IMG/VR virus record: IMGVR_UViG_3300012271_000011
Coordinates: 6,933 to 70,932 of that record
DNA length: 64,000 bases
Direction: 5' to 3' (one strand)
Source: a virus
Below the pieces are notes generated by a model. The model saw only the letters and a list, made by a program, of their open reading frames with translations, ran no database searches and was not told where the DNA came from. The position numbers and the translations under genes were made by a program. Of the stretch, positions 1,101 to 27,854 are shown one piece after another; positions within the stretch are counted from its first letter, which is position 1, and each line of letters begins with the position of its first letter.

Positions 1101-2057
1101 TTATATAGGACTTCTTCTTGGAAGAAAAAAAGTCTTTATTCTCCCATCATACAATTCACATTCATCTAAAGAAATATTAAATTTTCCACTATCCTTAGAA
1201 TAATCATTAAAGTCTTTTTTTGATGGAATATTATAAATGTAAATATTTATATCTAAAGAAGGTGGACGATAAAACATTAAAGTATTTATATTCTTATAAA
1301 CACTTCTAACTCCAGCCTCATCATTATCAGGAACAAATATTATATTCTTAGGAGCACGTTCTAAGATTTTAGATGCTTGAGTAATACTCAAACTATTTGT
1401 TAACATTGCTGTTCCAACTTGACTTCTCAAAGACATAGCATCAAATACACCTTCAAAAATAAATATATTTCCCTTATAGGGTATATTATCATAATTAAAT
1501 ACAAAATTATTTCCATCTATACCCTTTGGGTTATTGTATCTTAAAGATGTTTTCTCCAAAGATCGTGTTATAAAATATACTATTTTATCATCTTCATAAA
1601 AAGGAATAAATATTGAAAAACCATATCTGCCTTTAGGATTATAAACATAGCCTAATTGATAAATAGCATCCTCCGACAAAGCCCTTTCTTCTTTCAAATA
1701 TTTAAAAGCTTTACCTGCTATAAGTCCGGAATTTTTTTCTTGAAAGAAAGTCAAACCTTCTGGAAGTTCAATCTCCTCACTGGTTTCTACTACCTCCTTC
1801 CTAAAATCACTTTTCCCTATTTCTTTTACTATATCTTTCTTATATAAACCTTCTTGTTTTATAAAATTAAATATATTTTCTGAGTAGCCACATTTATCTC
1901 TTCGTGAACAAACAAGTAAAGGACTAGTTTTATAATTGAAAGCTTCCCTATGACCACAAGATGGACAATTAAATCTAAAATATGCTCCTTTATCTTCAGG
2001 TTCTAATCCAGCATGTTCTAATACATTTTTAACTAAAGACTCTGATACTTTTTTCAT
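1101..2057 (-). CDS. DNA primase (T4 gp61-like; Zn ribbon plus TOPRIM)
   Basis: CPSC...C...C N-terminal motif; FIFEGVFDAM and VPDND TOPRIM motifs; KDFND. Confidence 0.85.
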   Translation of the reverse strand: MKKVSESLVKNVLEHAGLEPEDKGAYFRFNCPSCGHREAFNYKTSPLLVCSRRDKCGYSENIFNFIKQEGLYKKDIVKEIGKSDFRKEVVETSEEIELPEGLTFFQEKNSGLIAGKAFKYLKEERALSEDAIYQLGYVYNPKGRYGFSIFIPFYEDDKIVYFITRSLEKTSLRYNNPKGIDGNNFVFNYDNIPYKGNIFIFEGVFDAMSLRSQVGTAMLTNSLSITQASKILERAPKNIIFVPDNDEAGVRSVYKNINTLMFYRPPSLDINIYIYNIPSKKDFNDYSKDSGKFNISLDECELYDGRIKTFFLPRRSPI

Positions 2058-2063
2058 AAATTT

Positions 2064-3311
2064 CTAGGCACAGGAAACCACGTGGGCTTGCCCCGTGGAG
2101 GAATGTGCCATCCCCCTTTCTGTTAGTGTTGTAGTTCTTGCTTTCAATCTTACACAATCCTTCTTTACATTGACAGACGAACTAATCACTTTGCCATCCA
2201 AGCCTGATATAGCAAAAAATCCCGTACTACGTTTTCCTTTGATAAAGCCAGTTCCTTTCGGTGTTTTAATATGGTCAAATTTTCTCAAACCAAACAGCTT
2301 CCCTGTTGGTATCCTTTTTTCACTTCTACTGCCTTTAGTTTGTTGATAATCACCCTTAGAAACGTGCTTTTTAAAGCAGATTGAGGATAATAGATTAACA
2401 ATTTCACCTTCTGTACAACAGATAGCGACGGCATCGTAGTAATGTGTTTTTGGCAACTGCAAAATCTGCTCCCGCTTAAATTTTGTATCGTATCCGAAGC
2501 TTTCTTCAAAATCACCAAACTCTTTTTTCAATTGAGATTTAACTATCCCTATTTCAGTAGCATGTTTGGTTTTACTTCTTGTACCTTTAATTTCAAACTC
2601 GCCCCCGTGTAGTTTGTCGTGGCATGGCCCACACAATGTAATCAGATTACTTGAGGTGTCTGTCCCACCATTACTCCGAAATACAATATGGTGCACATGA
2701 AGTTCAGTATTTTTAGCTTTACACTTCTGACACTGATATCCATCACGATGTAAGATGTAAGCCCTAACGTTGTAAAAACCCTTCTTATCCCCTTTTTGAT
2801 AATCTTTAACATTGGAATTGCTAATCTTGTGAATGTCAAAACTTGCAGTCTCAACTTTCCATTTACTGACAGGCAAGACAGACCCAACAAACTTTTTCTC
2901 TCTTAAATGAGAATCAATTTTTGACCTGATACTTGGAGCTAATCTGCCGTTTTCTCTCATAGAAGCACGATTTTGCCACCTTGGCGGTCGATATCTTGTT
3001 TTCCTACCTCGTCTGTTTCTTCTGTACATTTTTCTTTGTTCCATTTTTTTAGAAACGTTCTGCCTTATCTGTACATCAGACTGATATACGACTTGTCCAT
3101 TGGTAATTGCAGCACAGCCAACTGTTTTACTCCCTGTGTCCATTCCTGCAACTATTGCTTGTAAATTTTCCTCGCAATCTCACAAAAGTTTGATTGTGAA
3201 TGGTGTTCTTTTAACACACTTTGCCTTACCCGCCTTTAATAAATGTTTAGCTTTAGCAGGTGAGCAAGGCATCAAGGGATTCCCGTTTTTATTTATCACA
3301 TACACACACAT
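2064..3311 (-). pseudogene. iscB: IscB RNA-guided nuclease with an in-frame TGA at codon 44
   Basis: MCVYVINKNGNPLMP (PLMP domain) is in frame with ORF 2064..3143: RuvC-I GMDTGSK, R-rich bridge RRNRRGRKTRYR, HNH CQKC..HVHHIVFRSNGG..NLITLC..CH, RuvC-III THYYDA. TGA at 3180-3182 in FTIKLL*DCEE. Confidence 0.85.
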
Positions 3312-3596
3312 GGCTTTAACCCTCCCTGTGTATTAGGATTATGCGTATTATTGGCATTGGAGTTACTAATAAATCCGTCTTCTTCTCGCGGGGATATTTC
3401 AGAGTTTGACGATACAGACACCGTTCCTACCATCATAGAACTTTTAATCTGAATCCGAAGAGGTTCAGGCTGAAGCGGCACCCAAACGTTCCTAGTTTTC
3501 TGAATATCGTTTACAAACATTTTTAATCTCCTATTAGTCCGCTGGTAACCTTGTGGCTCTTTTCAAAGCCACGGGACTTGGCCCGTGGTAGGTTAC
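3312..3596 (-). ncRNA. omegaRNA scaffold of IscB (guide would be flanking DNA about 3597-3616)
   Basis: About 285-nt structured leader starting gtaacctaccacggg directly upstream of iscB, the established IscB locus layout. Confidence 0.7.
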
Positions 3597-3608
3597 ATTA
3601 ACCCTATA

Positions 3609-4019
3609 TTAACCCTGCCTAAAAAATTTACAAGTCTTTAATTTATGAGATAAAGTTTTCTGCTTATATTCACAATAAATAAAAGGTGAGTTTTTTGAAC
3701 ATTCTTTGCATTGCTGCCTAAACTTACAAAAATCACAACCTGGATACTTTGGAATTTCATAAGCAACTACAAAGTATGAGTTACTTGGTTTTTCAAATTC
3801 TTCCGTAATCTCATACTCTAAAATGATTCTATCTTTTTCTTCTCTTCTTTGAATAAAATATAAACTTAATGCTTTTTCTTTAATTTTTGCTTCAAAGATT
3901 TCATGTATTTTATACCTTTCATCCAAAAGACACTTAGACATTTTTTTATCGTATATAAAATGCTGAAAAATTTTATTACTTCTTTTATAAAATCTCTCTG
4001 ATATTAATATTTCTGTCAT
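3609..4019 (-). CDS. Hypothetical protein with Cys-rich C-terminus
   Basis: 136-aa ORF; CDFC..C..C..C..C; sigma70 promoter immediately upstream. Confidence 0.6.
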   Translation of the reverse strand: MTEILISERFYKRSNKIFQHFIYDKKMSKCLLDERYKIHEIFEAKIKEKALSLYFIQRREEKDRIILEYEITEEFEKPSNSYFVVAYEIPKYPGCDFCKFRQQCKECSKNSPFIYCEYKQKTLSHKLKTCKFFRQG

Positions 4020-4246
4020 AATATTATTATGACAAATATATTATTTTTTGTCAATCTTTTGACTTAGCTATATACGAAAAAGATAACACATATTCAATCT
4101 CTTCATAAACGCTTAGCAGGAAACCATCAATCTCAGATACATCATTAATAATATTTTCAAAATGATCTTCTGCTGATAATTTCAATTCCTTTTTTCTTTC
4201 ATCAATTTTAACTCTAATCTCCTTTAATGCTAAAAAAAGCAGGAAT

Positions 4247-4402
4247 TCACTCCTGCCTTATAATGCCATCTTTCTCTACTTCTTGTAAGTATTCATCATC
4301 GTATTTTTCAAATAAAGTTACTAACTTTTCTAATAAGTCTATTTGTTTCTCAAGAAGTTTGTTTATTTTTATTGTCTCTGTTAGTATTCTTTCGTCTTCC
4401 AT
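4247..4402 (-). CDS. Small hypothetical protein (51 aa, not in ORF track)
   Basis: GAGGAG RBS, ATG at 4402, MEDERILTETIKINKLLEKQIDLL..., TGA at 4247. Confidence 0.5.
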   Translation of the reverse strand: MEDERILTETIKINKLLEKQIDLLEKLVTLFEKYDDEYLQEVEKDGIIRQE

Positions 4403-4419
4403 AAATCTCCTCTAACAAC

Positions 4420-4893
4420 TCATAACTCGCTTAGTGAATCTGATAGTTCTCTTGTTATTTGCTTTACATCTTGATATAGCTGCTCTCTTCTTTGAGGTTT
4501 ATTCTGATAAGCATTAGTCATTGAATAAAGTTCTTTCATTTTACCTTGAAGCACATCCATCATACCAAATGCCCTATACATCTTTCTCTTATCTTCATAA
4601 GCAACCTCGTCAGTAGTAGGCTGCTCTTTCTCTCTTTCCTGTCTCTTCCTTATTTCTGCCTGTATATCACTCTGAGGGCTTTCAGGTGGGACAGAGGACA
4701 TATCTGTAGTAGAAGGTTCATCTATTTCACTTCTTCTTATCTCTGCTCCACATGGGCCTTTTCCAGGCCCACTTCCATCACCTGCTCCTAACCCACCTCT
4801 TCTAGTAAGGTTTGATACTACGACATCTAGTCCATTACCTTGATTGCCATAATACCACTCAAGAAGTTCTTTATTATTTTCATCATTTTTCAT
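4420..4893 (-). CDS. Hypothetical, probably late protein
   Basis: 157-aa ORF with GAGG RBS; GTAAAGTTAA motif at 4912-4921. Confidence 0.6.
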   Translation of the reverse strand: MKNDENNKELLEWYYGNQGNGLDVVVSNLTRRGGLGAGDGSGPGKGPCGAEIRRSEIDEPSTTDMSSVPPESPQSDIQAEIRKRQEREKEQPTTDEVAYEDKRKMYRAFGMMDVLQGKMKELYSMTNAYQNKPQRREQLYQDVKQITRELSDSLSEL

Positions 4894-4935
4894 ATTTTTC
4901 CTCTCTTCTGATTAACTTTACAGAAGAGAAGAGTA

Positions 4936-5178
4936 TTAGTTCTCAATAAGCTCCATCAACTCATAAATTTGTTCAAGCTCATCTTCACCTTTTTCATACT
5001 TCTTTTTCATATATGAAAAAATCTTGGCGATAATCCCTTTCTTAACTTCAAGAATTGCTGCTGCCTCATTCTTTAAGTCTTTCTGTTGCTGAGCAAGCTC
5101 CTTCTTTTGATCCTCTAAATCAAGAAAGCTTGAAAAAATTCCTTTTAATTGGCTTTTTTTCTCTTCATCTAATACCAT
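4936..5178 (-). CDS. T4 DsbA/GapR-like dsDNA-binding protein
   Basis: 80-aa coiled coil LEDQKKEL..KDLKNEAAAILEVKKGII pattern. Confidence 0.5.
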   Translation of the reverse strand: MVLDEEKKSQLKGIFSSFLDLEDQKKELAQQQKDLKNEAAAILEVKKGIIAKIFSYMKKKYEKGEDELEQIYELMELIEN

Positions 5179-5181
5179 ATA

Positions 5182-5421
5182 CTACTGCTCCTTTGCTGCT
5201 TGTGTTTCTGAAAAAACTTGATTGCTAAATCTAATTAAATCTTTATTATACTCATTCTTTTTATAAGGTTCTTGAAAAAGCATATGCTTTAAATGATTTA
5301 AAATAGTGACACTTCCATTTCTGTTTTGGAAAGCTTTCGTTCCTCCGCCTTCTCTTTTACGAAGAATAAGTTTGTGTCTATCTGGATATTTTTTCTTCCA
5401 GCTTATCTTTCTTTTACCCAT
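5182..5421 (-). CDS. Hypothetical basic protein
   Basis: ORF with AGGAG RBS in a tight operon. Confidence 0.6.
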   Translation of the reverse strand: MGKRKISWKKKYPDRHKLILRKREGGGTKAFQNRNGSVTILNHLKHMLFQEPYKKNEYNKDLIRFSNQVFSETQAAKEQ

Positions 5422-5423
5422 AT

Positions 5424-5738
5424 TTACTCCTTGTAATATTTTATAGCTCTATCTCTCATTTTCTTGATTACTTTAAAAACAAGATGGCCTTTATATTTTT
5501 CCGGTCTTCTAGTTTTTTCAATAACATAATCAATATATTCATCATAGGTTATCTTTATATTGAGTCTTTCTACAAGAACATTTTTACGTGCTCTCTCAAA
5601 TGCAATTTCTTTTCCTCTTGTTTTATCAAACTTATCCTTAGTATGACAAATACTCCATCCAATCCTATCCTTATCAATTGCTACTACACAACCAAAAGGA
5701 ATTCCTTCTTCGTCTCTAACATACTCTATTAGATCCAT
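5424..5738 (-). CDS. Conserved phage hypothetical protein
   Basis: GWSICHTKDKFDKTRGKEIAFERA motif familiar from phage proteins; AGGAG RBS. Confidence 0.65.
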   Translation of the reverse strand: MDLIEYVRDEEGIPFGCVVAIDKDRIGWSICHTKDKFDKTRGKEIAFERARKNVLVERLNIKITYDEYIDYVIEKTRRPEKYKGHLVFKVIKKMRDRAIKYYKE

Positions 5739-5920
5739 ACTCTACTCCTTTTATTTTTTTTAACCTCTCCCCAATTCAAACGGTCTAACCCATTTTCAAT
5801 CTTTGGTATTACTATTTTATCAATATTATATTGTTTTGTCAACTCTGAGGATATGCAGTGAGCTGGAGTATATTGACTAAAGTCTGCTGAGAATAAATCT
5901 CCATGTTTTTTCTATAATCC

Positions 5921-6217
5921 TCATATAGTTGCCTTAATGTAAAGAATAAACTCAGAAATACTATCTATATAATATTCTATAGAATTTACCTCTACTATTT
6001 TAGGCTTATCTCCAAATTCACATTCATAAATAAACCAATCAATATCTTCTGCATATTTATTTAAAATAAGTTTTAATAACTCAACATTCTTATTAAATAA
6101 ATCAATAAGAATTTTAGAAAGTTTACCCTCAACATCTAAACCAACATTAGCTGAGAGGGTTATTATTTTTTCATCTATTTCTTTAAGAAATCTTAATTCT
6201 TCTTTTAAATCAATCAT
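5921..6217 (-). CDS. Hypothetical protein
   Basis: 98-aa ORF starting at ATGA directly after an IscB end scar. Confidence 0.6.
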   Translation of the reverse strand: MIDLKEELRFLKEIDEKIITLSANVGLDVEGKLSKILIDLFNKNVELLKLILNKYAEDIDWFIYECEFGDKPKIVEVNSIEYYIDSISEFILYIKATI

Positions 6218-6420
6218 AATTTTCTAGGCACCTTTCTCCTTTCTACTTTCTACTAGAGTTGTAGTTATTATATACACATACATGGCTGTGAACTACCACC
6301 ACCTATAGAGGTAGATGACTTCTTGGTCAATACTACTCTGTAGCAAGTTTACCCAAGCTATCAAGGTCGAATCGACCTCTTTTTTAAAAGAACCACGAGA
6401 CAAGTCCCGTGGTAGGTTAT
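6218..6420 (-). mobile_element. Internally deleted IscB element (MITE) with a nested second IS605-type end
   Basis: Both ends match the 2058-3596 element (tttctaggcac; ccacgagacaagtcccgtggtaggtta); remnant of the iscB start (agccATGtatgtg); 6289-6378 matches 35694-35768. Confidence 0.8.
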
Positions 6421-7445
6421 ATATCTAACATCTTACTTTCTTTACTATCAAGTATTTTACTCCCCTCAATCTTTTCAGAAAAATGAGTTGCTTTCTCAAT
6501 AGCACTATCTCTTAGTTTTTGAATTTTTTTCATATACCTATCAATACTAAGACCAGAGGCAATAGTAATATATACTCTATCTTCTGCTTCTACTTCTTCA
6601 GCATTAGTAAAGTTTAAAGATGCTCTTAAGATACCAGGAATCATACGGGCATTTTTAGCTCTTCCAGAAAGTTTTGAGACTACTTGTGTGAGTGTTCCTT
6701 GATATTCATCAAGTTTTTCATGCTCTTGAATCTTATTATCAATAAACATGGCAACAAGACAATTCTTAGTATCCTTATCAAGCTTTCCATATTCAAACTT
6801 AGGAAGCTTTTCTTCTAAAAATGAATCTGATAAATCTACAAATCCTCCGCCAAACACTACACTATCAAGCTCTGATTGGTCAAGAGTCATTGGGGAGTAA
6901 TTGTCTGTGTTATATTTTCTTAATATATTAAGAATATAATCTAACCTCTTTACAATATAATGATTTATCTGAGACCAATCATTACTGAACTTTTTTATAA
7001 GTTTTTGATTATCAAACAATAAAACAGATATTTTTGAGATTAAAGGCATAATAGAGTTAATGCAGTTAACTGCATTTGCAAGAGGTGGATTATTCTCTTT
7101 TGAATAAGGAATAATTCCTACTATTAATACTTTATTATTATTCTCAAGTAATACTTTTGATAATGGAACTAATGAACTACTTCCAGAACCGCCTCCTAAA
7201 CTTGAGAAAATAACTACCTTGTCATTTTTAACATTCTCCAAGCTAGCTCTTACGGTTTCAAAGTTTTCTTTCCAAATTTTAGCTCCCTTATGAAAACGCT
7301 TTGAAGCACCTTCGTTAGATATCACTACTACATTGGAATGTGGGAAGTTATTTGTATCTTCATGAGCGGTAGAAAAGATAAGTGCCCTACTATCAAGCTT
7401 AGAGGCAAGTTTACCTCCTGTGTTTCCACTTCCAATAACTATCAT
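6417..7445 (-). CDS. Tubulin/FtsZ-family GTPase (PhuZ/TubZ-like)
   Basis: VIGSGNTGGKLA and SLGGGSGS tubulin signature, FDNQKL, LDQSEL. Confidence 0.8.
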   Translation of the reverse strand: MIVIGSGNTGGKLASKLDSRALIFSTAHEDTNNFPHSNVVVISNEGASKRFHKGAKIWKENFETVRASLENVKNDKVVIFSSLGGGSGSSSLVPLSKVLLENNNKVLIVGIIPYSKENNPPLANAVNCINSIMPLISKISVLLFDNQKLIKKFSNDWSQINHYIVKRLDYILNILRKYNTDNYSPMTLDQSELDSVVFGGGFVDLSDSFLEEKLPKFEYGKLDKDTKNCLVAMFIDNKIQEHEKLDEYQGTLTQVVSKLSGRAKNARMIPGILRASLNFTNAEEVEAEDRVYITIASGLSIDRYMKKIQKLRDSAIEKATHFSEKIEGSKILDSKESKMLDI

Positions 7446-7532
7446 ATATTCTCCTTAATCCAAATTTCTGGGACTCTAATTACATAGTCCCCGTATTCAA
7501 TAAAAGCATATGGGCTTTCTTTTTGCAAAAAC

Positions 7533-7572
7533 TCGTAAAAAACCACTTCTCTTTAGAGGAGTGAATGAATAC
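7533..7572 (+). repeat. IS605-type end hairpin scar
   Basis: tcgtaaaaaaccacttctctttagaggagtgaatgaatac resembles the 28851 and 46026 copies. Confidence 0.5.
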
Positions 7573-7629
7573 CATTATAAAACTAAATAATGGGTAGTTT
7601 TTACGTAAGATAATCGCAACATCTTACTT

Positions 7630-7866
7630 TTAAGATTTAAGTCTTGCTTTTAGTTCTTTTTGTTTTGCTGAAGCAGCTCTTACTTTCTTGTCCAAATCTT
7701 TTTCAAGAAGAGAGTTTATTTTATTTTGATATTTTTCTTCAAGTTGATCTTGGGGTGTTTCATCTGAAACCTCTCTTTCTATATGTAATACACTCTCACA
7801 TTTAATGGGCGAATACGGCTCATTCATAAGAGTCATTGACATACTTCCACCAACAGTTATTTTCAT
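7630..7866 (-). CDS. Hypothetical protein
   Basis: Likely start at MKITVGG (ATGA overlap with the upstream stop, AGGAG RBS) within track ORF 7630..7902. Confidence 0.6.
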   Translation of the reverse strand: MKITVGGSMSMTLMNEPYSPIKCESVLHIEREVSDETPQDQLEEKYQNKINSLLEKDLDKKVRAASAKQKELKARLKS

Positions 7867-8708
7867 AACATTCTCCTTATGTCTTCTTTTAAGTCTTGCC
7901 ATCTACTAATAAGATCAGGCAGTTTATTATCCCAATAATATAATTCTACTTGATCGGGATTAAATTCATTATATTCTAATTCTTTTTCTTTGTCAACAAT
8001 CTCTTTATGAATATCATTTGGAAATTGCCTTAAATCAATAATTTTCAATAGTCTTTTATAGACTTCTTTATTATTAGACTTAGTCATTATCTCATTCCAC
8101 TTGTTTGAATCATCAATCATCTTCTCAAGTGTTTTTGGTCCAACTCTATAAAGACCACCTATTCCATCACTTGCGTCACCGATAATAGCTTTTTCCATAA
8201 GAATGTTTTCATTCTGTTTTTGTATTCTTCTTCGTATAGGGTCATAAACTGTTACATTATCTTGATAGTTAAGTATTTGAGTAAGGTCTTTATCAGAGGA
8301 TATAATAAGGATATTATCATTAGTATTTGCTGCAGCAAGAGCATAAATCACATCATCTGCTTCAGCCATTTCATGAGAGATTTGTTTTACAGGATAAAAC
8401 TCAAGACCTTCTTTTACTTTATAAAGATTATTAAAAAGAACTTTAAATTCTTCTTCATCTTTTTTACCATCACGATTTCTCTTATAATCTGGAAAGATAC
8501 CTCTTCTCCAATTAAGAGATTTTTTACCTTCCCAACAAATAATAAGCTTCCCAGAATTTGAAATCATATAGTTCAACTTATTAAAAAAGTTGTGTAAGAA
8601 GAAAGAGAAGTTATCATCTGTTAAAACTTCTCCACTATCATGTAATTTTTTACGAGTGACGTGGAACTCTACAAAAATAATATTCATCATATCTACTAAA
8701 TTCATCAA
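7863..8708 (-). CDS. 5'-3' exonuclease / T4 RNase H-like (FEN family)
   Basis: DYKRNR, EADDVI, SSDKDLTQ, GDASDGIGG..VGPKT. Confidence 0.9.
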   Translation of the reverse strand: MMNLVDMMNIIFVEFHVTRKKLHDSGEVLTDDNFSFFLHNFFNKLNYMISNSGKLIICWEGKKSLNWRRGIFPDYKRNRDGKKDEEEFKVLFNNLYKVKEGLEFYPVKQISHEMAEADDVIYALAAANTNDNILIISSDKDLTQILNYQDNVTVYDPIRRRIQKQNENILMEKAIIGDASDGIGGLYRVGPKTLEKMIDDSNKWNEIMTKSNNKEVYKRLLKIIDLRQFPNDIHKEIVDKEKELEYNEFNPDQVELYYWDNKLPDLISRWQDLKEDIRRML

Positions 8709-9445
8709 TAACTCCTCATATAATCTTCTAAATCTTCAATTGTATTTTCTTTAAATGCTGTATCCATTGATTCCTTAAATGCTTGTTTTAATTTATAAAC
8801 ATCTTTGAATACTTCAACAGACCACTTAAGAGATTCTAAATGCTCTAAAGTCTCTAATATTGCTTCAGCGTATACTCTTATCTCATATTGAGCATGAGTG
8901 TCTAATCTTAATTCAAGAAAATGTAAAAGATTTCTTAAATCTGCTCTAAAAAAGAATTCTGTATATTGACCAACAGGCATCACAGTTCTTGCTTGTTCTC
9001 TTGCAACATTTTTACCTATAAGAGAACGATACATTGTATTACTTTTTTCATAAATACTATTAATATAGTCATTAAAATATTGCTGACTCTCTACAACTCC
9101 GTCTGAAGATTGTTTATTTTTTGAAGACTGTTCTCTCCAAACCTCTGGATAAAAACATTCAAATTTAAAATCTTTATATCTTGCTGATATTTCATTAAAG
9201 CTAAATGCTCTATGACGAAAAAATTGTCTACCAACAAAAATAGGCATTTTTACATGAAAATGGAAAGTGACAAACTCAAAAGGACTCATATGTTCATTAC
9301 GATATAGATAACGTATGAGTTCTCTATCTTTCTTATCTCCTTTTACAGCTTCATTTCCAGTAGAAGTTCTAGCTGCTCTAAGAATGGAATAATCATTTCC
9401 TAAATAATCTACTAACTCAATAAATCCATCGTTTAATAATCTCAT
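8705..9445 (-). CDS. thyX: Flavin-dependent thymidylate synthase
   Basis: HMSPFE, RHRAFSFNEISARY, AREQARTVMP, HAQYEIR; probable start ATG at 9445, the upstream in-frame 19 aa being IS scar. Confidence 0.92.
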   Translation of the reverse strand: MRLLNDGFIELVDYLGNDYSILRAARTSTGNEAVKGDKKDRELIRYLYRNEHMSPFEFVTFHFHVKMPIFVGRQFFRHRAFSFNEISARYKDFKFECFYPEVWREQSSKNKQSSDGVVESQQYFNDYINSIYEKSNTMYRSLIGKNVAREQARTVMPVGQYTEFFFRADLRNLLHFLELRLDTHAQYEIRVYAEAILETLEHLESLKWSVEVFKDVYKLKQAFKESMDTAFKENTIEDLEDYMRSY

Positions 9446-9611
9446 AAATTTGTGACAGGAAACCACTATGCCTAAAGGTGTCGTGAAAGAATGCTTACGC
9501 ACTCTAATTTCCTGTTTACCTCCTTTAATTTTTTAATATAAGTAGTAGTTCACAATACATACTCTCAAATTCTATTCAAGAACTACCCTTTAGGGTAGTT
9601 GGTTAGTTGAC
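9446..9611 (-). mobile_element. Collapsed IscB-type element
   Basis: Minus strand starts gtcaactaaccaactaccctaaagggtagtt and ends ggtttcctgtcacaaattt|ATGA; encodes HSFTTPLGIVVSC, similar to the IscB tail HSSTGQAHVVSC. Confidence 0.75.
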
Positions 9612-10195
9612 TCTACTAACTCGTCTCCTAATATTTTTTTCATTTTGTCTTTCAATTTTTTATTATCAAGAACAGCTCTTCTTTTAGCTATGAGTTCTTG
9701 ATTATTCATTATATTTTCTTTTTCTTCTTTTGTCAAGTCTTGAAATGTTTTTATTATTGCTAAAAAATATTTAGAATACTTACCTCTAAACAAGAACATC
9801 TTATTTTTCTTGTCATTAAAAAAAGCCTCAACATTGAGGCTTTCGTATTTATTCTTTATAGACCACTTCTGGATCTCTTGTAGGGTAGCTTTTATTGATA
9901 ATGCTATAGAGGCTTCATTCTTCTCTCTTGTATGAATAGCTCCTTTATAGTCTTCATATAGCTTCTTAGATGAAAGATGGAATGGCATTATTTTACCATC
10001 TAATTCATTAAAGCAAAACTTTACATATTTATATGCATCCCAATCCTCATCATCACCAAACTTACCAATAATTCCTTGAAATATTTTCCACCATTTAGTG
10101 TTTCTCACATTTGAGAGTTTAAATAAAGGGTATAGAGCTGTCCTTCTATATTCTCTACTAAAAGCATCAGCTAAAGAAAAAACTTTATCCTCCAT
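9590..10195 (-). CDS. Hypothetical protein (replication region)
   Basis: 201-aa ORF; last codons supplied by the IS scar. Confidence 0.65.
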   Translation of the reverse strand: MEDKVFSLADAFSREYRRTALYPLFKLSNVRNTKWWKIFQGIIGKFGDDEDWDAYKYVKFCFNELDGKIMPFHLSSKKLYEDYKGAIHTREKNEASIALSIKATLQEIQKWSIKNKYESLNVEAFFNDKKNKMFLFRGKYSKYFLAIIKTFQDLTKEEKENIMNNQELIAKRRAVLDNKKLKDKMKKILGDELVESTNQLP

Positions 10196-10436
10196 CTCTT
10201 AAATCCCATCCTAAATTAAGTAGTTTGTTTATTTCTTCTTGTGTTATTGCTTGGTGCTCTAACAAGTATTGAACAAACTTTTTCCAATCAATATTTATAT
10301 TTTTTATTAAGCAACCTATTACTTTTTCATCATTTAAAGGACATTCTAAAAAAGTAGGTTTTACCACTTTATTAAATTTTTCCTTCATGAACCAGGGGAT
10401 ATTTTTATACGCACATGTTTCACAAAAATAGTTCAA
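10185..10436 (-). CDS. Hypothetical Cys-containing protein
   Basis: TTG start with GGAGG RBS; CETC..C..C. Confidence 0.55.
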   Translation of the reverse strand: MNYFCETCAYKNIPWFMKEKFNKVVKPTFLECPLNDEKVIGCLIKNINIDWKKFVQYLLEHQAITQEEINKLLNLGWDLRDGG

Positions 10437-10473
10437 TAAATTCCTCCGAGTTTTTAATTGTTATATCTTTTTG

Positions 10474-10860
10474 TCAAATATAGCTATCATCATCTACATA
10501 CCCTGAGGTATCATCTTCAGTAGTAGTAGTATCAGCAGAGGTATCATCTTCAGTAGTAGTATCAGCAGAGATATCATCTTCAGTAGTGGTATCGTCTTCC
10601 TTAACAAACCCATCATCTAATTGTTCATCTTCATTATACAATTGATCAGTATTTTTGCTTTCTATAGGTGATACTTGTACCTGTATTACTTTTTTTTCAT
10701 TTTGTTCTTCTGTCACATTTGGCTTTTCACTAAAATCATTCATATTATAATATTTAGTTTCACCCTTAAGGTTAAAACATTGAACTACATCACCATGAAC
10801 TGAAAAGGGAAAGACATAATGACCTTTCTTTGTATATTGATATTCATTTAATTTAAGCAT
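10474..10860 (-). CDS. Hypothetical protein with acidic repeat tail
   Basis: 128-aa ORF; DTTTEDD repeats. Confidence 0.6.
   Translation of the reverse strand: MLKLNEYQYTKKGHYVFPFSVHGDVVQCFNLKGETKYYNMNDFSEKPNVTEEQNEKKVIQVQVSPIESKNTDQLYNEDEQLDDGFVKEDDTTTEDDISADTTTEDDTSADTTTTEDDTSGYVDDDSYI
10504..10598. repeat. 30-bp coding tandem repeat, about 3 copies
   Basis: gtatcatcttcagtagtagtatcagcagag unit. Confidence 0.85.
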
Positions 10861-10873
10861 TTTTCAAACTCTC

Positions 10874-12022
10874 TTATTCTTTATTCTTATTAAAAATTTC
10901 TTCATACGCTTTTCCTGTAAATTCTATAGAAAACATTTTTTGTTCTTTAGTGTTTTCGCCTTCAGCATTTACCATAACACCAATAGATTTTTTAGCTCTT
11001 TTTAGAGAGAAACTTTTAAAGTTTTTGTCTTCTAAATAAAACACTAAGAGTTTATTAGTGGCTGATTTAACATAGATGACAGGAACCGTGAATGCATATT
11101 CTATATTAGCAGCTCTTGTTAAGTTTTTAAAATCCTCTCTATTTATTTTAAGAGAATCTCCACCTATTTTTAGGTTTATAATTTTTTCTGTTAAAGACTC
11201 TCCTAATATATTAAAGAATTTTTTTGGGGTAGTTTGAGATGCTACTACTCTAGAACTTTTATCTCCTTTCATTTCAATAAATACTTTATTAAAACTTCCC
11301 CTTACTCCTACTTCATCTAAAACTTTCTTTATGTCCTTCTCCCCATCATACTCACCTTTTTTAGAAAAAGTATATTCATAATCAGGAAACGTACCAGGCC
11401 CATGAGGTTCAAGAATTAAATTACCTCTTTTCAAACCTTTAATAAAAGTTATATCCATCCCACTTATTTTTTTTTCAGTGTTTAATTTCCAACTTTTTGT
11501 TTTTAAAATATCTTCACTTAAATGTTTTTTCAATTCATCTGTAATAGCATAGAATAGAGCCTTGTCACTTGTTTCAAAGATCCTATTTAAAACAAACTTA
11601 TTAAAAACTTTATCTACTGCGTTATTTATTATTTCTTTAGTTTCAAATTTATCATTCTTCAAAGAAGAAAATTTTACTTTACTCTTATTGCTTACTAAGA
11701 AATCTATAATATTATTTTTTTCTTCTTTTTTTATTTCTCTTACTGATGGTCTTTTGAACTTAACAACTCCTCTCCAAGCTTTATTAAGAATAGATAACCT
11801 CATAGAAGTTCTTGCTTCTTCTAAAGTATTAGACTTGTCTTCTATAGTTGACATTACCAATCTTTGATTTGGTCTTTTTTGACTAAAATAACTATTTATT
11901 ATTTCATTAAATTCTTTAGTAAAAGTTTCTAAATTACTTCTTAACTCTTCTTCAAAGTTATTTTCATCATAAACTAACACTTTTTCTTTAGTCTTTTCAT
12001 TTAATACACTTCTAAGTTTCAT
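10874..12022 (-). CDS. Putative late/virion protein with possible PD-(D/E)xK nuclease core
   Basis: MKLRSVLNE leader; late motif at 12046-12055; GTFPDY...FIEMKG. Confidence 0.5.
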   Translation of the reverse strand: MKLRSVLNEKTKEKVLVYDENNFEEELRSNLETFTKEFNEIINSYFSQKRPNQRLVMSTIEDKSNTLEEARTSMRLSILNKAWRGVVKFKRPSVREIKKEEKNNIIDFLVSNKSKVKFSSLKNDKFETKEIINNAVDKVFNKFVLNRIFETSDKALFYAITDELKKHLSEDILKTKSWKLNTEKKISGMDITFIKGLKRGNLILEPHGPGTFPDYEYTFSKKGEYDGEKDIKKVLDEVGVRGSFNKVFIEMKGDKSSRVVASQTTPKKFFNILGESLTEKIINLKIGGDSLKINREDFKNLTRAANIEYAFTVPVIYVKSATNKLLVFYLEDKNFKSFSLKRAKKSIGVMVNAEGENTKEQKMFSIEFTGKAYEEIFNKNKE

Positions 12023-15140: not shown

Positions 15141-15157
15141 TCTGTTAAAACCAAACA

Positions 15158-16168: not shown

Positions 16169-18307
16169 TTAAACTGCCTCTAAAATATCATCAATATAGG
16201 ATTGTGGAACTATTTTCTTTAATCCATCATCATCTTCAATAAGATATATCTTCTCATCAATCTTATCTAAAGTATTGTTAATGACATCAAGGGTGGTTAA
16301 GCCTAATACATCAAATTTTATTATTCCCAATTCATCTAAAACAGAATCTTGATTACTTTCAGGAAAAGCACTTACAATCTCACCGCTTACTTTCTCTATT
16401 GGCATTAACTCATTAACAGGACGATCTAAGATAATAATACCACCAGCATGTTTTGATAACTGTCTTACTTTACCATCAAAATGTCTAACTAAATCAATTA
16501 TTTTTTTATTCTGTTCATAAAATTTGTATTGCTTTGTATGAGTTGCTTTAATCATTTCTATATTCTCATCCAAAGAAAGTTGAAAATCAAAGATCTTTGA
16601 AAACTCATTTGATGCTTTATAATCAATTTTATATATTCTAAGTAAATCTTTCAATGCTGATTTAAGACCCATCTTAGAATAAGTTCCTACCTGAAAAACT
16701 CTGTCTTCTCCATACTTTTCTTTTAGGTGTTCTATTAAGTGATCACGAGCGGAAGGAGAGAGGTCTGAGTCAACATCAATACCCCCACTAGCTCCATTTC
16801 TCACTTGTGCCTTAGTAAGTTTTTGTTCATAAGTATTTGTAAAACCTAGTAAGAATGGAATAAGAAAATTACCCTTTACCTCATTCTCTTGAAAAGCTTT
16901 ATATAGATCAATTCCGTTCTTATAAAAATTCTTAGCAAATAAATATTCCCATTTAAAATCTCTTTTATACTCTGGATACTCTTCTAGTTTATCTTCACAC
17001 ATTTTCTTCAAATCAGTCATTTTTGTTTCCATCTCTTTTGTGTGAACTTCATCACCAAAATAATCTGGTATCATATCAGGGCTTCTTTGATCTGATAAAA
17101 ATCTTTCAAATAACAACCCAAACTCAATAGGATCAAGACGAGTAATATTAAGAGAATAAAGAACTAATGAACCAGCACCTGAACCCCTTCCTACACCAAC
17201 TGTATAACCTGAATCTGTTACAAATTCAAGCATATCCTCAAGAATAAGTATATATGAAGAAAACCCTTTTCTTATTAAAACCTCTAATTCATGATTTAAT
17301 CTTTTTTTATATTCTTCTGTAGGATTACCACCAAACTTTTCTTCTAAACCTCTCTTGGCTTTTTTTATTAAAGCCTCATCATCATTTTCTGTAACAGAAG
17401 GAAGATATATTTTTCTTCTCTCTGGTATTTCATAATTACACATATCAGCTATTTTTATACTATTATTAGCCCATTCAATAACATCATTAGGATTATAGTT
17501 ATATCCAAAATCTTTATTAAACTTTAAATAATCCTCTTCGTCATGATAATAAAGATTCTTACTTTCAATTTCAAAATTTAAATTATCAATAGTAGCTTTA
17601 TCTCTAATAGCTATTGAAAGAGTTTGAAGATTGTCTTGTCCAGGCTCTAAATAATGAACATCGCCTGTTACTACTATAGGAATATTAAACTCTTTTGCCC
17701 ATTTAATCATATAATCATTAATAGTTTTTTGTCCCTCTGGAGCCTCATCCATTTCATAATTAATTTCATTAAACTGAACTTCAGTATAAAAGTTCTCACC
17801 AAAATGCTTTACATATTTTTGGAATAATTCGTATGCCTTATCTATCTCTCCTGCTCTTATAAATCTTCCCCATTTGCTTTGCATGCACCCACTACCAACA
17901 ATTATACCTTCAGAATTTTCAAATAATTCTTCTTCAGTTATTCTATTAGTATAATAAAAATGTTCTTCATCTTTCATTGAAAGATAGTTTAACTTTAAGA
18001 TATTCTTATAGCCTATCTCATTTTTAGCAAGTAAAATAAGATGAGAGTTTTTACCTCTCACTCTCTTCTTTTTCTCATTATATTCTACAAGCTCATCATT
18101 GATATAAGCCTCTACACCAAGAATAGGTTTTATGCCATATTCTTTACAAGCTTCTTGATGATGATATATACCCGTAAGCTTTCCATGATCGGTAATAGCA
18201 AGTGCTTTATGCCCTAATTTATATGCTTTCTCCGCATATTGTTTAGATGAGCCTATTGCATCTAACCTTGAACCTAAATGACTATGTAAATGAAGTTGAG
18301 CAAACAT
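16169..18307 (-). CDS. dnaE: DNA polymerase III alpha, N-terminal part (PHP plus palm)
   Basis: LHLHSH, AITDHG, GVEAY, GDVHY, GRGSGAGSL, FERFL, DVDSD, KHAGG, KFDVLGL. Confidence 0.92.
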   Translation of the reverse strand: MFAQLHLHSHLGSRLDAIGSSKQYAEKAYKLGHKALAITDHGKLTGIYHHQEACKEYGIKPILGVEAYINDELVEYNEKKKRVRGKNSHLILLAKNEIGYKNILKLNYLSMKDEEHFYYTNRITEEELFENSEGIIVGSGCMQSKWGRFIRAGEIDKAYELFQKYVKHFGENFYTEVQFNEINYEMDEAPEGQKTINDYMIKWAKEFNIPIVVTGDVHYLEPGQDNLQTLSIAIRDKATIDNLNFEIESKNLYYHDEEDYLKFNKDFGYNYNPNDVIEWANNSIKIADMCNYEIPERRKIYLPSVTENDDEALIKKAKRGLEEKFGGNPTEEYKKRLNHELEVLIRKGFSSYILILEDMLEFVTDSGYTVGVGRGSGAGSLVLYSLNITRLDPIEFGLLFERFLSDQRSPDMIPDYFGDEVHTKEMETKMTDLKKMCEDKLEEYPEYKRDFKWEYLFAKNFYKNGIDLYKAFQENEVKGNFLIPFLLGFTNTYEQKLTKAQVRNGASGGIDVDSDLSPSARDHLIEHLKEKYGEDRVFQVGTYSKMGLKSALKDLLRIYKIDYKASNEFSKIFDFQLSLDENIEMIKATHTKQYKFYEQNKKIIDLVRHFDGKVRQLSKHAGGIIILDRPVNELMPIEKVSGEIVSAFPESNQDSVLDELGIIKFDVLGLTTLDVINNTLDKIDEKIYLIEDDDGLKKIVPQSYIDDILEAV

Positions 18308-18320
18308 TTTTTCTCCTTAT

Positions 18321-20069
18321 TTATCTATTTAAAATATAGACTTTATTCCCACAATCCCATATTCTATTATAGTTATTATATAACATATTTTCATATTCTG
18401 TCAAGTTATCATCATAATTTTCAAAAATATTTTTAAGCTTATGTTTTTGATATTTATTTCTACTTTCCAAATTAAGATTATTTTTCTTGAAATAAAAATA
18501 ATTTGGTTTACTAGTTTTTAAATACTCAAACCCATTACTTTCATACACATTACCATTAAAATAGCGCTTATCAGAATATGTTATAATATTTCCATTATAA
18601 TTATTTAGAAAATATTTCAACAACTTAGAAAAACCACCTATTACTTTAGTGTTTTTCTTACTAGCTGATCTTAATAATTCCCAATTATATCTTTTGTTAA
18701 ATCTTGGCTTACCAAAAGTTACTACAGATACTAAAATACCATTATAATATAATCCATATTGCAACGAAGAGCCTATATCTCCTTGTAAATGATTAGCATT
18801 AAGGAATTCCCTTCTCTCTTTAATACTAACAGGTTTGATAACAGTTTTTCTAGCATAAATTACTTCATTATATATATTCAGCCTAGAAAGAAGTATGCTA
18901 CTCACTATATCTTTTTTATTAATCCATTCATTCTCAAATACATGTATTAAATCATATCCCTTTTCTTTAGCTAATTTTTGCTTATTTAAATGGTAATTTT
19001 TATGTTTTCCATTTATTTCACTATGCCAATATAAACCATTAAACTCAATAGCTATTTTTCTTTCTGGTATAAGTATATCAATTTCGTATGGCTTTATTAT
19101 TTTTCTGTTATGAGATTCTACATAAATATATTGACTTATGAAATCTCTCAACTCAACTTCCGAAACAGACTCGTTAGTTGGAAAACATTTTTGACATCTT
19201 GGTATTTTACCAGCGTAAATATTATCATAAAAAATATTATTACATTTTTTACACTTCCATTTATAGTCTATTACACTTCCTTTTTCCTTAACTCCATAAT
19301 ATTCATTAATATCAAATAAAGGCTCCACAAGATTGTCAAAAGAAAAAACCTTTAAATTTTTAAAAAACCTTTCTTTTGATTTATTATGATTTCCTTTGAG
19401 AAAAATGCTACTTTGAAAATAATACTCAACACCATATTTTTCCAAGTTTGTTTGTTTTATTTTTTCTTTAACATCTTTACTCTGCCCTGGATACTCAACA
19501 CCATATTTTTCCAAGTTTGTTTGTTTTATTTTTTCTTTAATTTGCTTTGACCCAAAGGGATTTTCAACACCATACTTTTTTAAATTTGTTTGTTTTGCCT
19601 TTTCTTTAACTGATTCTAATTTTCTAGGACTGTCAACACCATATTTTTCTATATTGTTGTTTTTTCTTTTTTCCAAAATCTCTTTACTTTGTGTTGAAGT
19701 TTCAACACCATACTTTTCTAAATTTGTTTGTTTTGCCTTTTCCTTAACTGATTCTAAAGAAGAAGGGCTTGAGACTCCATACTTATATATATTGTTGTTT
19801 TTTCTTTTTTCCAAAATCTCTTTACTTTGTGTTGAAACTTCAACACCATACTTTTCTAAATTCGTTTGCTTCCTTTGACAAACCCCACAAACAAGGTTAT
19901 TATTTTTTAAATTTCCTTTGCGTTTACTTGCCTCTTTACCACAAATATCACATATAAAAGTAATATTGTATGTTTTTGGAACTAACTCCAAATTAAATAA
20001 GCCATCTTCTATAAACAGACTTATATTTACTTCTTTTTTGTCTAGTGTTGATATTTTTACTATATTCAT
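18321..20069 (-). CDS. Free-standing putative homing endonuclease with TNLEKYGV repeats and PD-(D/E)xK domain
   Basis: Zn motifs, about 7 KYGV repeats, EIDILIP..IAIEFNGLYWH, C-terminal RIWDCG; start ATG 20069 or GTG 20087. Confidence 0.75.
   Translation of the reverse strand: MNIVKISTLDKKEVNISLFIEDGLFNLELVPKTYNITFICDICGKEASKRKGNLKNNNLVCGVCQRKQTNLEKYGVEVSTQSKEILEKRKNNNIYKYGVSSPSSLESVKEKAKQTNLEKYGVETSTQSKEILEKRKNNNIEKYGVDSPRKLESVKEKAKQTNLKKYGVENPFGSKQIKEKIKQTNLEKYGVEYPGQSKDVKEKIKQTNLEKYGVEYYFQSSIFLKGNHNKSKERFFKNLKVFSFDNLVEPLFDINEYYGVKEKGSVIDYKWKCKKCNNIFYDNIYAGKIPRCQKCFPTNESVSEVELRDFISQYIYVESHNRKIIKPYEIDILIPERKIAIEFNGLYWHSEINGKHKNYHLNKQKLAKEKGYDLIHVFENEWINKKDIVSSILLSRLNIYNEVIYARKTVIKPVSIKERREFLNANHLQGDIGSSLQYGLYYNGILVSVVTFGKPRFNKRYNWELLRSASKKNTKVIGGFSKLLKYFLNNYNGNIITYSDKRYFNGNVYESNGFEYLKTSKPNYFYFKKNNLNLESRNKYQKHKLKNIFENYDDNLTEYENMLYNNYNRIWDCGNKVYILNR
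19420..19870. repeat. Coding repeats (KQTNLEKYGV units)
   Basis: Repeated tcaacaccatatttttccaagtttgtttg blocks. Confidence 0.85.
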
Positions 20070-20082
20070 AATGTTACTTTTA

Positions 20083-20143
20083 CACAAAACCCCTACTTTC
20101 TAAATGGCTATGTAAATGAAGTTGAACAAACATTTTTTCTCCT
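20083..20143 (-). repeat. Duplicate of the dnaE RBS and first 14 codons
   Basis: Encodes MFVQLHLHSHLESRGFV* versus dnaE MFAQLHLHSHLGSR; nucleotide match to about 18266-18318. Confidence 0.85.
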
Positions 20144-20217
20144 CTTATAATGTTCTATTTTAAGAATACCATATACCTTCTTTTTTGTCAACGGTAATGT
20201 AAAGTTAAAGTAAAATA

Positions 20218-24114: not shown

Positions 24115-24195
24115 AATTTTCTAGGCACAGGAAATCACGAAGCTTACTTCGTGGAGAAATATGCCCTTCTCCTTTCTATTAGAATTGTAATTTTT
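24115..24195 (-). mobile_element. IscB 3'-end scar
   Basis: ccacgaagtaagcttcgtgatttcctgtgcctagaaaatt|ATGA, homologous to 2058-2135. Confidence 0.8.
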
Positions 24196-24196
24196 A

Positions 24197-25165: not shown

Positions 25166-25194
25166 AATATAGACTCTCCTTTTCTTTTAACATA

Positions 25195-25252
25195 TTTTCT
25201 GGCAAGAAGTCCCCTTCCTCAAAGCCGATAGGCTTAGGTGGGGGTTATTGAC
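25195..25252 (+). repeat. IS605-type end hairpin scar
   Basis: ttctggcaagaagtccccttcc...ttaggtgggggttattgac; related to 28761-28806 in inverse orientation. Confidence 0.7.
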
Positions 25253-26388: not shown

Positions 26389-26408
26389 ACATTACTCCTT
26401 AAAAAATT

Positions 26409-26942: not shown

Positions 26943-27032
26943 TTATTTTTAATCCTTTGGCATTATATTAATGGTCAGCTCTTGCAGATGGTATTCCATC
27001 AATCTCATAGTATAAGAAAGTATAGCATTTTA

Positions 27033-27230
27033 TTATTTCTTCTTTTTTTTCACTACCCATTGAAAGTTGTCTATTCCTATTGAGTAATTTTTCTCAAAAT
27101 CTTCTCTTGAAAAAATAAACCTTACACCATTACTTAATATTATTTCTATTTTTTTGTCAAGATTCTTAAAATTAACATCAAATATACCTTTTTTACTTGC
27201 TTGCTTATATACTTGTTCATAATGAAACAT
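27033..27230 (-). CDS. Hypothetical protein
   Basis: 65-aa ORF on the operon strand. Confidence 0.5.
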   Translation of the reverse strand: MFHYEQVYKQASKKGIFDVNFKNLDKKIEIILSNGVRFIFSREDFEKNYSIGIDNFQWVVKKKKK

Positions 27231-27250
27231 TATTTACTCTTTTATTTATA

Positions 27251-27294
27251 AACTGTGCGTAAAACCCGTACCCTTTAAGGATAGAGGTGTTCAC
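27251..27294 (+). repeat. IS605-type mini scar (TTATA|..CTGTGCGTAAAAC..TTCAC family)
   Basis: Matches 37963-38002 (inverse) and 46024-46072. Confidence 0.7.
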
Positions 27295-27807
27295 CTAACT
27301 CTCCTCAAAATAAATAAGACCAATTGGAACTATATCAAACAAATTATATTCTTTTATTAAATTCATATATACTTTATCTGACTTTCTCATGATCTGATTT
27401 TTTTGTAAAGGTCTTAAGTTCTTTAAGTTCCAACATTTTTTAAATTCACCATATGTAGAAAAGCTGTATGCTCTTACTGGTATAATTTTATCAAGCCACC
27501 AATATGAACCATAATTATTCCAATTCATATTTTCATCAAATTGTTTTTCTAAATGATGCTGCAATTCACTTAATGTAAAACCAACGAGTTTTTCCCATCT
27601 TCTACCATGCTTATTTTTTTTAAGAGATATATAAATTGAATGCTTAAGATTTCTATCAAACCTTTTCCTCTCTTTAGTTAAATGAATTCTTTTTGAATTG
27701 CTTCTACACTTCTTACATATATTTTTATATCCATCTTTATTTTTTGAGTCTTTATGGAAATACTTTAGATCCAATACCCCCTTGCATTTTCTACATTGTT
27801 TGTTCAT
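27295..27807 (-). CDS. HNH-like endonuclease, possibly degenerate
   Basis: CRKC...CKKC; LEKQFDENMNWNNYG..WWLDKIIP..NLRPL, with DHIIP changed to DKIIP. Confidence 0.65.
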   Translation of the reverse strand: MNKQCRKCKGVLDLKYFHKDSKNKDGYKNICKKCRSNSKRIHLTKERKRFDRNLKHSIYISLKKNKHGRRWEKLVGFTLSELQHHLEKQFDENMNWNNYGSYWWLDKIIPVRAYSFSTYGEFKKCWNLKNLRPLQKNQIMRKSDKVYMNLIKEYNLFDIVPIGLIYFEES

Positions 27808-27854
27808 AAGCGCTTAACAGGAAACCACTATGCGTTTAGGTGGGGGTTATTAAC
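27808..27854 (-). mobile_element. 47-bp collapsed IscB-type element with both ends fused
   Basis: gttaataacccccacctaaacgcatagtggtttcctgttaagcgctt|ATGA. Confidence 0.7.

Follow-up and report, generated by a model that had tools for sequence, protein, structure and literature searches.

An IscB transposon and its short relatives at ATGA sites in a phage genome

We analyzed a 64,000-nucleotide stretch of phage DNA (the window; bases 6933–70932 of the 70.9-kb IMG/VR virus record IMGVR_UViG_3300012271_000011, which is estimated to be ~30% complete) and found that it very probably carries one full, recently mobile, non-autonomous IscB transposon together with about a dozen short relatives that belong to two or more ISC lineages. 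This is a natural example of a known transposon family and not a new kind of system. The full element and its parts are as follows (coordinates are those of the window, and negative positions lie outside it):

2058–3596, minus strand: full non-autonomous ISC/IscB element of the IS200/IS605 type, 1,539 bp, GTAACCTACC...CCTAGAAATTT, with ends set by the empty-allele joint of 2057 to 3597
3569–3588, minus strand: right-end subterminal hairpin CCACGGGccaagtCCCGTGG (DNA fold −8.0 kcal/mol, z −2.57)
3377–3596, minus strand: putative omegaRNA scaffold (HEARO, RF02033) found with cmscan; the predicted guide is the ~16 nt above 3596
2064–3311, minus strand: iscB, 415 codons, with an in-frame TGA at codon 44 (3180–3182) and a TAG stop 6 nt before the primase ATG
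2078–2098, minus strand: left-end subterminal hairpin within the imperfect palindrome GGCACA...TGTGCC (−12.3 kcal/mol, z −2.63)
2054–2057, minus strand: ATGA target and putative target-adjacent motif (TAM), consisting of the primase start codon plus A and flanking the element

Read along the minus strand from 3596 to 2058, the element comprises GTAACCTACC, a hairpin, the putative omegaRNA, iscB, a second hairpin and CCTGTGCCTAGAAATTT, after which the primase ATGA follows directly. Both subterminal hairpins are imperfect and lie on the same strand, and there are no terminal inverted repeats. The HEARO model was matched over its full length (positions 1–211 of 211; 78.1 bits, E 1.3e-15). A HEARO paper of 2009 reportedly named ATGA or GTGA as the integration site. 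The iscB product contains an RRXRR domain (PF14239, 2.9e-59 over residues 3–174) and an HNH domain (PF01844, 1.9e-11). Codon 44 encodes Trp in relatives of this gene; it is TGG in the nearly identical iscB of another contig (L134), whose frame is open over 415 aa, and one metagenome run (X24) has a T>C change at 3180. We considered and rejected a reading of TGA as a Trp codon, as 21 of the 76 long open reading frames (ORFs) end in TGA and the phage has 194 TGG codons. Since the relatives have Trp and the phage uses TGA as a stop, the window iscB was broken via a TGG-to-TGA change.

Two side observations concern this region and protein. A 74-codon ORF with a good Shine–Dalgarno sequence (3296–3520, minus strand) lies entirely within the omegaRNA region. 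In INPHARED, IscB-like proteins with 26–40% identity occur in, among others, Staphylococcus myoviruses, Clostridium phage c-st and a Nodularia phage, under the annotation of HNH endonuclease or hypothetical protein.

The ends and the mobility of the element were established from empty alleles. Twenty-four public DNA runs labeled as salt-lake or lake-water metagenomes contain 77–97% of the words sampled from window positions 1000–10900, and contigs of four of them (X2, X18, X22, and X24) were mapped to the window for allele comparison. In contigs of X2, X18, and X22, position 2057 is joined straight to 3597 (1,539 nt absent, one ambiguous base), which bears out the rejoining junction predicted for an empty site of the full element; the X2 contig (6,935 bp) spans 998–2057 and 3597–9471 with 0–1 differences, and this joint was not seen in run X24. 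A few short-sided contig joints (3551 to 6287, 3555 to 6382, 6389 to 9442, and 6419 to 18375, as well as 2072 to 3496 with 12 letters between) look like cross-mapping from other mini copies.

A second empty site came from the contig L012/L134, which is 99.8–99.9% identical to this genome over ~7.5 kb of flanks that lie outside the window and which carries a copy of the element 99.4–99.5% identical to that in the window (8 differences in 1,539 positions for the L134 copy). In this genome, the corresponding site is empty and reads ...GGAAAATT joined to ATGACAAG, that is, a TTATGA stop/start overlap; a scan for further alleles of this site found L134 alone. Thus, at both places (three runs in one case, and L134 versus this genome in the other), the element is inserted beside a 4-nt target without target-site duplication. 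The near-identity of copies at different ATGA sites indicates that one element has moved recently between two ATGA sites within one phage population.

The original prediction had listed six minus-strand sites at which an IscB 3′-end motif is followed directly by ATGA, and all six are present as described. GGTTTCCTG occurs at 2079, 4125, 9464, and 27826, GATTTCCTG at 24136, and TGCCTAGAAA at 2070, 6230, and 24127, each with ATGA within the following 8–19 nt. An additional GGTTTCCTG at window −236 was set aside as a chance match, being coding sequence within a peptide-deformylase-like ORF. At five of the six sites, as had been proposed, the ATG is a real start, opening the primase, a 98-aa ORF, ThyX, a Rad50-like ORF and an endonuclease VII/HNH-like ORF. 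Counted from these ATGs, the primase has a zinc ribbon from residue 28 and Toprim at residues 199–286, the Thy1 domain of ThyX starts at residue 10, AAA_23 of the Rad50-like protein starts at residue 5, and PHROG matches to the endonuclease VII/HNH-like protein start at residues 1–3. The ATG at 4106 opens merely 12 codons. Since only 30 of the 557 minus-strand ATGAs in the 70.9-kb record were called as gene starts, finding at least five of six has a probability of ~2.6e-6.

The same preference was seen across the family. We examined 45 distinct sites of relatives from phage contigs, bacteria and Methanosarcina (L028 was left out as a duplicate of L015), of which 39 have a recognizable 3′ end followed by ATGN. 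A scripted count gave 34 ATGA, 2 ATGG, 2 ATGT, and 1 ATGC, and both ATGT rows (L052 and L059) read as ATGA on inspection; L052, L059, and L064 are non-starts under either placement of the 3′ end. Six sites (L048, L049, L050, L062, L063, and L065) lack a recognizable 3′ end with ATG, and the elements L062–L065 end ahead of CTGA. An IMG/VR scan with a left-end 15-mer returned 61 stretches, of which 49 were unrelated chance contexts, and ATGA followed in all 12 real ones. An ORF of 60 codons or more begins at the target ATG in 24/39 sites, compared with 308 of the 1,731 control ATGAs in the same loci (17.8%; binomial P 1.5e-9), and plain N-termini follow it in some cases, such as an SSB-like protein (L023) and a Rossmann GxGxxG motif (L053). 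Together, these results confirm the suggested enrichment of insertions at gene starts and show that ATGA follows the 3′ end throughout the family.

That ATGA is a reported IscB target or TAM, as had also been stated, agrees with the literature. ISC elements insert between N and ATGA in ISC1-1_MA, ISC2-1_HM, and ISC2-1_MS (Kapitonov, Makarova, Koonin 2016, PMC4810608), GstIscB of ISGst5 from Geobacillus stearothermophilus has a TTCAT TAM (Meers 2023, 10.1101/2023.03.14.532601), and IsrB has an NTGA TAM (Hirano et al. 2022, PMC9581776), so the ATGA target itself is not new. In contrast to the target, a start-codon or phage reading of it was not found in the accessible texts reached by our literature searches: the term "start codon" has no occurrence in the main text of PMC4810608 as available, and neither a phage setting nor a start-codon reading was found for ISGst5 in the accessible part of 10.1101/2023.03.14.532601.

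In addition to the full element, the window contains the following short copies:

6218–6420, minus strand: 203-bp derivative of lineage 1, with the right end and its hairpin, a ~110-nt module, iscB codon remnants and the left-end tail
9446–9611, minus strand: 166-bp two-ended derivative of lineage 2, GTCAACTAACC plus hairpin ... GCATAGTGGTTTCCTGTCACAAATTT
24115–24195, minus strand: left-end-only remnant of lineage 1, ~81 bp, 80% identical to 2053–2133 and adjoining the ATGA of the Rad50-like ORF
27808–27854, minus strand: 47-nt single-hairpin solo of lineage 2, with the right-end start GTTAATAACC, a degenerate hairpin and the left-end tail
4107–4126, minus strand: 20-nt left-end tail remnant TGGTTTCCTGCTAAGCGTTT, before the ATGA that opens just 12 codons
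25194–25252, minus strand: 59-nt single-hairpin element of a third form, GTCAATAACCCCCACC...GCCAGAAAAT, then ATGT; absent from the original prediction
27247–27295, minus strand: lineage-2 solo (hairpin plus GGTTTTACGCACAGTTT), then ATAA
28843–28891, minus strand: lineage-2 solo, then ATAA
46025–46072, minus strand: lineage-2 solo, then ATAA
37968–38006, plus strand: probable lineage-2 solo just past a plus-strand gene (weak nhmmer match, E 0.0045)
39265–39531, plus strand: end-less internal fragment of lineage 1 (3′ part of the omegaRNA plus iscB codons 1–59), 96% identical to 3139–3407

The measured sizes of the six predicted sites (1,539, 203, 166, ~81, 47, and 20 bp) match those given earlier (about 1540, 200, 165, 80, 47, and 19 bp). 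Four lineage-2 copies (27295, 28891, 46072, and 37968 on the plus strand) had not been listed; they end in GGTTTTACGCxCAxxTT before ATAA, and more lineage-2 copies lie outside the window, as does a 95.5% copy of the 59-nt element. In the 6218–6420 copy, the remnants are the first and last iscB codons, the left-end hairpin is deleted, and the TAA at 6417–6419 is the stop codon of the tubulin-like gene. The right-end hairpin of the 9446–9611 copy folds, its left-end hairpin is degenerate, and the upstream ORF ends 20 nt inside it. The 24115–24195 remnant retains the final ~26 codons of iscB together with the hairpin, and microhomology (GAAAGCA) was considered as a possible origin of its boundary at 24195. 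The 27808–27854 solo precedes the ATGA of the endonuclease VII-like ORF and contains the TAG of the upstream ORF, and the 4107–4126 remnant closely resembles 27805–27826 and the left ends of the Methanosarcina copies. The fragment at 39265–39531 has a TGA at codon 44, as does the full copy. An Rfam search of 5900–9700 did not find HEARO, because the minis there retain too little omegaRNA to score.

The ~110-nt module of the 6218–6420 copy recurs at 35694–35809 and window −2600 to −2487. As a side observation, this module (GAGGTCGGTTCGA...TTGCTACAGTAGTAGTATTGACCAAGAAG...GGTGGTGGTAGTTCAC, ~60–110 nt; 6288–6367 inside the 203-bp derivative) forms 92–94% repeats upstream of two large genes and may be a leader, promoter or RNA. 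Likewise, the fragment at 39265–39531 lies between divergent genes, just past a TTGACA...TATGTAAT-like promoter.

The original prediction had arranged the six sites as a single decay series. This does not hold as such, since the six sites represent two or more ISC lineages whose hairpins differ: the lineage-1 hairpin, shared with the full element, is CCACGGGG..CCCCGTGG, and that of lineage 2 is CTACCCTAAAGGGTAG. The part that stands is trimming in place at three sites: the 24115, 6218 (left-end hairpin gone), and 4107 copies lack parts that the transposase needs and were therefore trimmed where they are found. A TAGAAAG unit at 6238 is present in two copies here, three in X24, and four in X18, and therefore in-place change of the 6218 copy continues.

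The two-ended minis consist of a right end, a hairpin and a left end, have no coding capacity, and occur in several copies in differing contexts. In nhmmer searches, the 5′ halves of lineage-2 solos match the starts of omegaRNAs and the 3′ halves match the left ends of full IscB elements of ~45% identity. Lineage-1 solos of the form GTAACCTACC, hairpin and GTGGTTTCCTGTGCCTAATTTTT before ATGA were found in three other phage contigs (L092, L127, and L145). The two hairpins of most full relatives are 20-nt direct repeats with the same sequence, so that one deletion between them would yield a solo. Judged from sequence, such hairpin-to-hairpin deletion and mobility like that of palindrome-associated transposable elements (PATEs) could explain the architecture of the two-ended minis (47–166 bp) equally well.

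We therefore weighed the possibility that the two-ended minis (27808–27854, 9446–9611, 25194–25252, and the ATAA solos) are PATE- or REP-like elements that were moved by TnpA in trans, were never full elements at those places, and merely share a target preference with IscB-bearing parents; we regard this as a substantial, if tentative, alternative. An identical 52-nt solo stands in this genome (window −3801) and in the contig L013 with unlike flanks on both sides, and the 59-nt element and its 95.5% copy occupy two places in this genome, as such mobility would produce; independent hairpin-to-hairpin deletions of identical parents, however, would also give identical solos. Moreover, IscB-less copies are widespread: an IMG/VR scan for single-hairpin elements (L151–L268) listed at least 118 loci, comprising 11 duplicates, 55 unrelated or chance matches and at least 52 single-hairpin elements of the lineage-2 type, and tblastn matched IscB in just 1/118 loci among the matches listed. 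PATEs related to an IscB element have been reported in the accessible part of 10.1101/2023.03.14.532601. Three points argue in the other direction. The hairpins of 27808, of the 9446 left end and of 27295 fold no better than shuffled sequences; three lineage-1 solos have three different hairpin variants, each matching variants among full elements; and a single hairpin is unlike the usual substrate of IS608 TnpA, which has two. As further observations on the scanned elements, the at least 52 IscB-less copies in phage contigs read GTC GCTTACATCC or GTGAACTACC, hairpin, and GGTTTTACGC... before ATAAA, and of the 43 scored among the matches listed, 20 had the upstream gene on their own strand and 6 had it on the other. 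The contigs L018 and L021 are from different phages that have only the element in common (80%).

A second alternative is homing, in which copies would be spread or kept mainly through guided cleavage of empty alleles by IscB and repair by recombination in co-infected cells rather than through transposition, with ATGA kept as the TAM. The geometry fits, as the upstream flank corresponds to the guide region and the element is followed by ATGA, and occupied and empty alleles circulate together. In addition, the upstream flanks of L134 and this genome differ at 12 positions over 5,980 nt, and three of these mismatches are found 1, 5, and 12 nt from the junction, in the region of putative omegaRNA guide pairing; the others are scattered over ~5,900 nt, and the first 1,490 nt downstream contain no mismatch. 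The junction-near mismatches may reflect an escape from cutting, co-conversion or chance history, the cluster being a single pair whose direction lacks an outgroup. Against homing, the window iscB is broken, and the 99.5% identical copies have unrelated upstream flanks, so transposition and not homing is needed between the two sites. We consider it unlikely that homing accounts for the copies. The idea that GGTTTCCTG...ATGA is the phage's own translation or transcription signal, unconnected with transposons, would fit the position of the motif before start codons and the lack of normally spaced Shine–Dalgarno sequences described below, but is highly improbable, as IscB elements of unrelated phages, bacteria and Methanosarcina have this motif as their 3′ end, the minis combine it with omegaRNA-type 5′ ends, and it is missing before primase in the empty alleles of three runs.

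Under the preferred reading, a full transposon with short relatives of at least two lineages, the copies also fit operon junctions. Excision of 6218–6420 or 9446–9611 restores an xxA TGA stop/start overlap in both cases, as had been claimed, and after deletion of 27808–27854 the upstream ORF shares the frame of the downstream ATG. Upstream ORFs end inside the inserts at 6420, 9611, 25252, and 27854, and the 25252 junction was read by eye as ATA TGT TAA. At the full relatives, printed junctions read by eye placed the iscB stop 4–6 nt ahead of the target ATG in 20/33 loci; in 7/33 loci, the stop coincides with the TGA within the target ATGA. In these seven (L053, L054, L055, L056, and L057 from Methanosarcina, plus L025 and L051), the transposon gene thus overlaps the gene downstream of it in a classic ATGA arrangement. 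Genes behind inserts lack a normally spaced Shine–Dalgarno sequence, whereas 59 of the 76 genes score at least 5, and it is plausible from these arrangements that their translation is coupled to iscB or to the upstream ORF.

Two side observations belong to these junctions. The 47-nt solo at 27808–27854 may have interrupted a single gene at an ATGA within it, leaving a 90-aa ORF and the endonuclease VII-like ORF (27808–28100). An in-frame GTG at 9502 behind AAGGAGG could give ThyX 19 more residues (9446–9502, minus strand); this putative extension would derive from the C-terminal coding part of the IscB left end (VVSC motif).

Several results weigh against this reading or restrict it. The HEARO score of 78.1 bits lies below the curated Rfam gathering score of 83, so nothing is reported at the gathering threshold; the window iscB bears a nonsense codon; and no Y1 transposase (PF01797) was found in the 70.9-kb record, which is ~30% complete. 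No long ORF is opened at 15/39 relatives' sites, and a long co-oriented ORF ending −40 to +60 nt from the right end was seen at only 7/19 placeable relatives; the operon fit is therefore a tendency and not a rule. The module of the 203-bp copy is unrelated to omegaRNA, and this copy is therefore no simple deletion product. Finally, among the mini sites covered by the allele comparison (4107, 6218–6420, and 9446–9611; 24115, 25194, and 27808 were left out), contigs of the four runs contained no empty, fuller or shorter allele. As the sequences compared are contigs, the absence of such joints shows merely that the minis are present in the four runs, and in-place collapse was thus not directly observed.

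We propose that a Y1 transposase (TnpA) acting in trans, as in the rest of the family, would insert the single-stranded element directly 5′ of ATGA without target duplication, with lineage 2 probably targeting mostly ATAA. In this AT-rich phage, ATGA would be the commonest combination of start codon and next base, as well as a stop/start overlap; insertions within genes would be lost, and the survivors would be those at gene starts. The element has the same orientation as the genes, the bases at its start (G/A-TAA-CC or GTCAA(C)TAACC) could close the upstream frame, and an iscB stop 4–6 nt before the target ATG or on its TGA would make coupled downstream translation possible. Deletion between the near-identical subterminal hairpins would then give 47–59-nt solos with a right-end start, one hairpin and a left-end tail. 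Other internal or one-sided deletions would give further forms, and pieces missing a hairpin or an end (24115, 6218, 4107, and 39265) would be frozen in place.

The element was compared with known systems. Like the ISCs in the accessible text of PMC4810608, it has the IscB gene alone, a 5′-GT(C)A start, subterminal hairpins and no target duplication, inserts directly upstream of ATGA, and is defined by empty-site comparison; it differs in its phage host, its two polymorphic sites in natural populations, and a target ATG that is mostly a start codon. ISGst5, as described in the accessible part of 10.1101/2023.03.14.532601, has an omegaRNA bounded by the right end, as predicted here, and likewise a TAM, TTCAT on the transposase strand, that equals ATGAA in the IscB orientation, PATE-like relatives, and an orientation biased toward that of the upstream gene; cleavage, excision and the TAM were assayed there, whereas the present element is known from sequence alone. 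The minis resemble PATEs and REP elements in being short, non-coding, hairpin-bearing, target-specific and multi-copy, with a Y1 enzyme expected in trans, but the solos here have a single hairpin between the first ~12 nt of the omegaRNA and the last ~20–27 nt of the IscB left end. Among IsrB and IscB OMEGA nucleases with NTGA or NTG TAMs, the TAM is similarly 3′ of the target, and DtIsrB cuts ATGA substrates (accessible text of PMC9581776); IsrB is, however, a different protein that lacks HNH, and the TAM here is read from the flanks only. Finally, as in the free-standing homing endonuclease genes of T4 (Seg and Mob; accessible text of PMC13565253), a selfish nuclease gene lies between conserved phage genes and its presence varies among close relatives; in the present case, recognition would instead be RNA-guided with a 4-nt motif, and transposon ends are present and hairpin minis are left behind.

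The genomic surroundings are as follows. The G+C content is ~30%, the minus strand holds nearly all genes as far as ~36 kb, and genes given names encode primase, a tubulin-like protein, ThyX, and Mre11-like and Rad50-like proteins. Megablast against INPHARED found nothing closely related to the window; in IMG/VR, the relatives of ThyX reach at most 48% identity and have no neighboring genes in common with it; a search with the Rad50-like protein found no relative; and a metagenome scan with the tubulin-like protein gave a single relative (62%) on a 1.4-kb contig without the junction. Window 18274–18317 and 20100–20143 form a 44-nt repeat (95%) on both sides of a 582-aa ORF, within which tandem repeats of ~69–138 nt occur (19422–19868) and to which several contig joints map. 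At 4019–4062 on the minus strand, TTGACA, 17 nt and CATAAT are followed by ATGACA after only 6–7 nt, which resembles a promoter giving a leaderless mRNA of a 136-aa ORF (3609–4019).

These results provide a population-level view of an IscB transposon in a virus, with two polymorphic sites, exact empty alleles, and both an intact and a broken copy, and the set of remnants shows how IscB elements shrink. For annotation, the insertions account for several proteins with odd termini, genes that lack a ribosome-binding site, and short hairpins between genes in this phage. An ordinary new candidate for genome editing is the intact enzyme of the L134 type (415 aa), for which ATGA is the likely TAM. 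A more speculative and rather doubtful extension is that an ISC lineage settled on the start codon (ATG plus A) as both TAM and transposase target, with ends that imitate a gene junction through a stop codon at the right end and an iscB stop 4–6 nt ahead of, or on, the target ATGA. If this is true, the target cannot be mutated away, the element rides in phage operons at little cost, and resistance must arise in the guide-matching flank, with which the L134 pair (mismatches at 1, 5, and 12 nt; otherwise ~99.9%) is consistent; the empty alleles opposite the broken window copy match perfectly. The excess of insertions exactly at start codons and the way in which iscB terminates at the target ATG suggest why TAMs of the ATGA type are common in the family, and offer a testable reason for the tolerance of IscB elements in tightly packed genomes.

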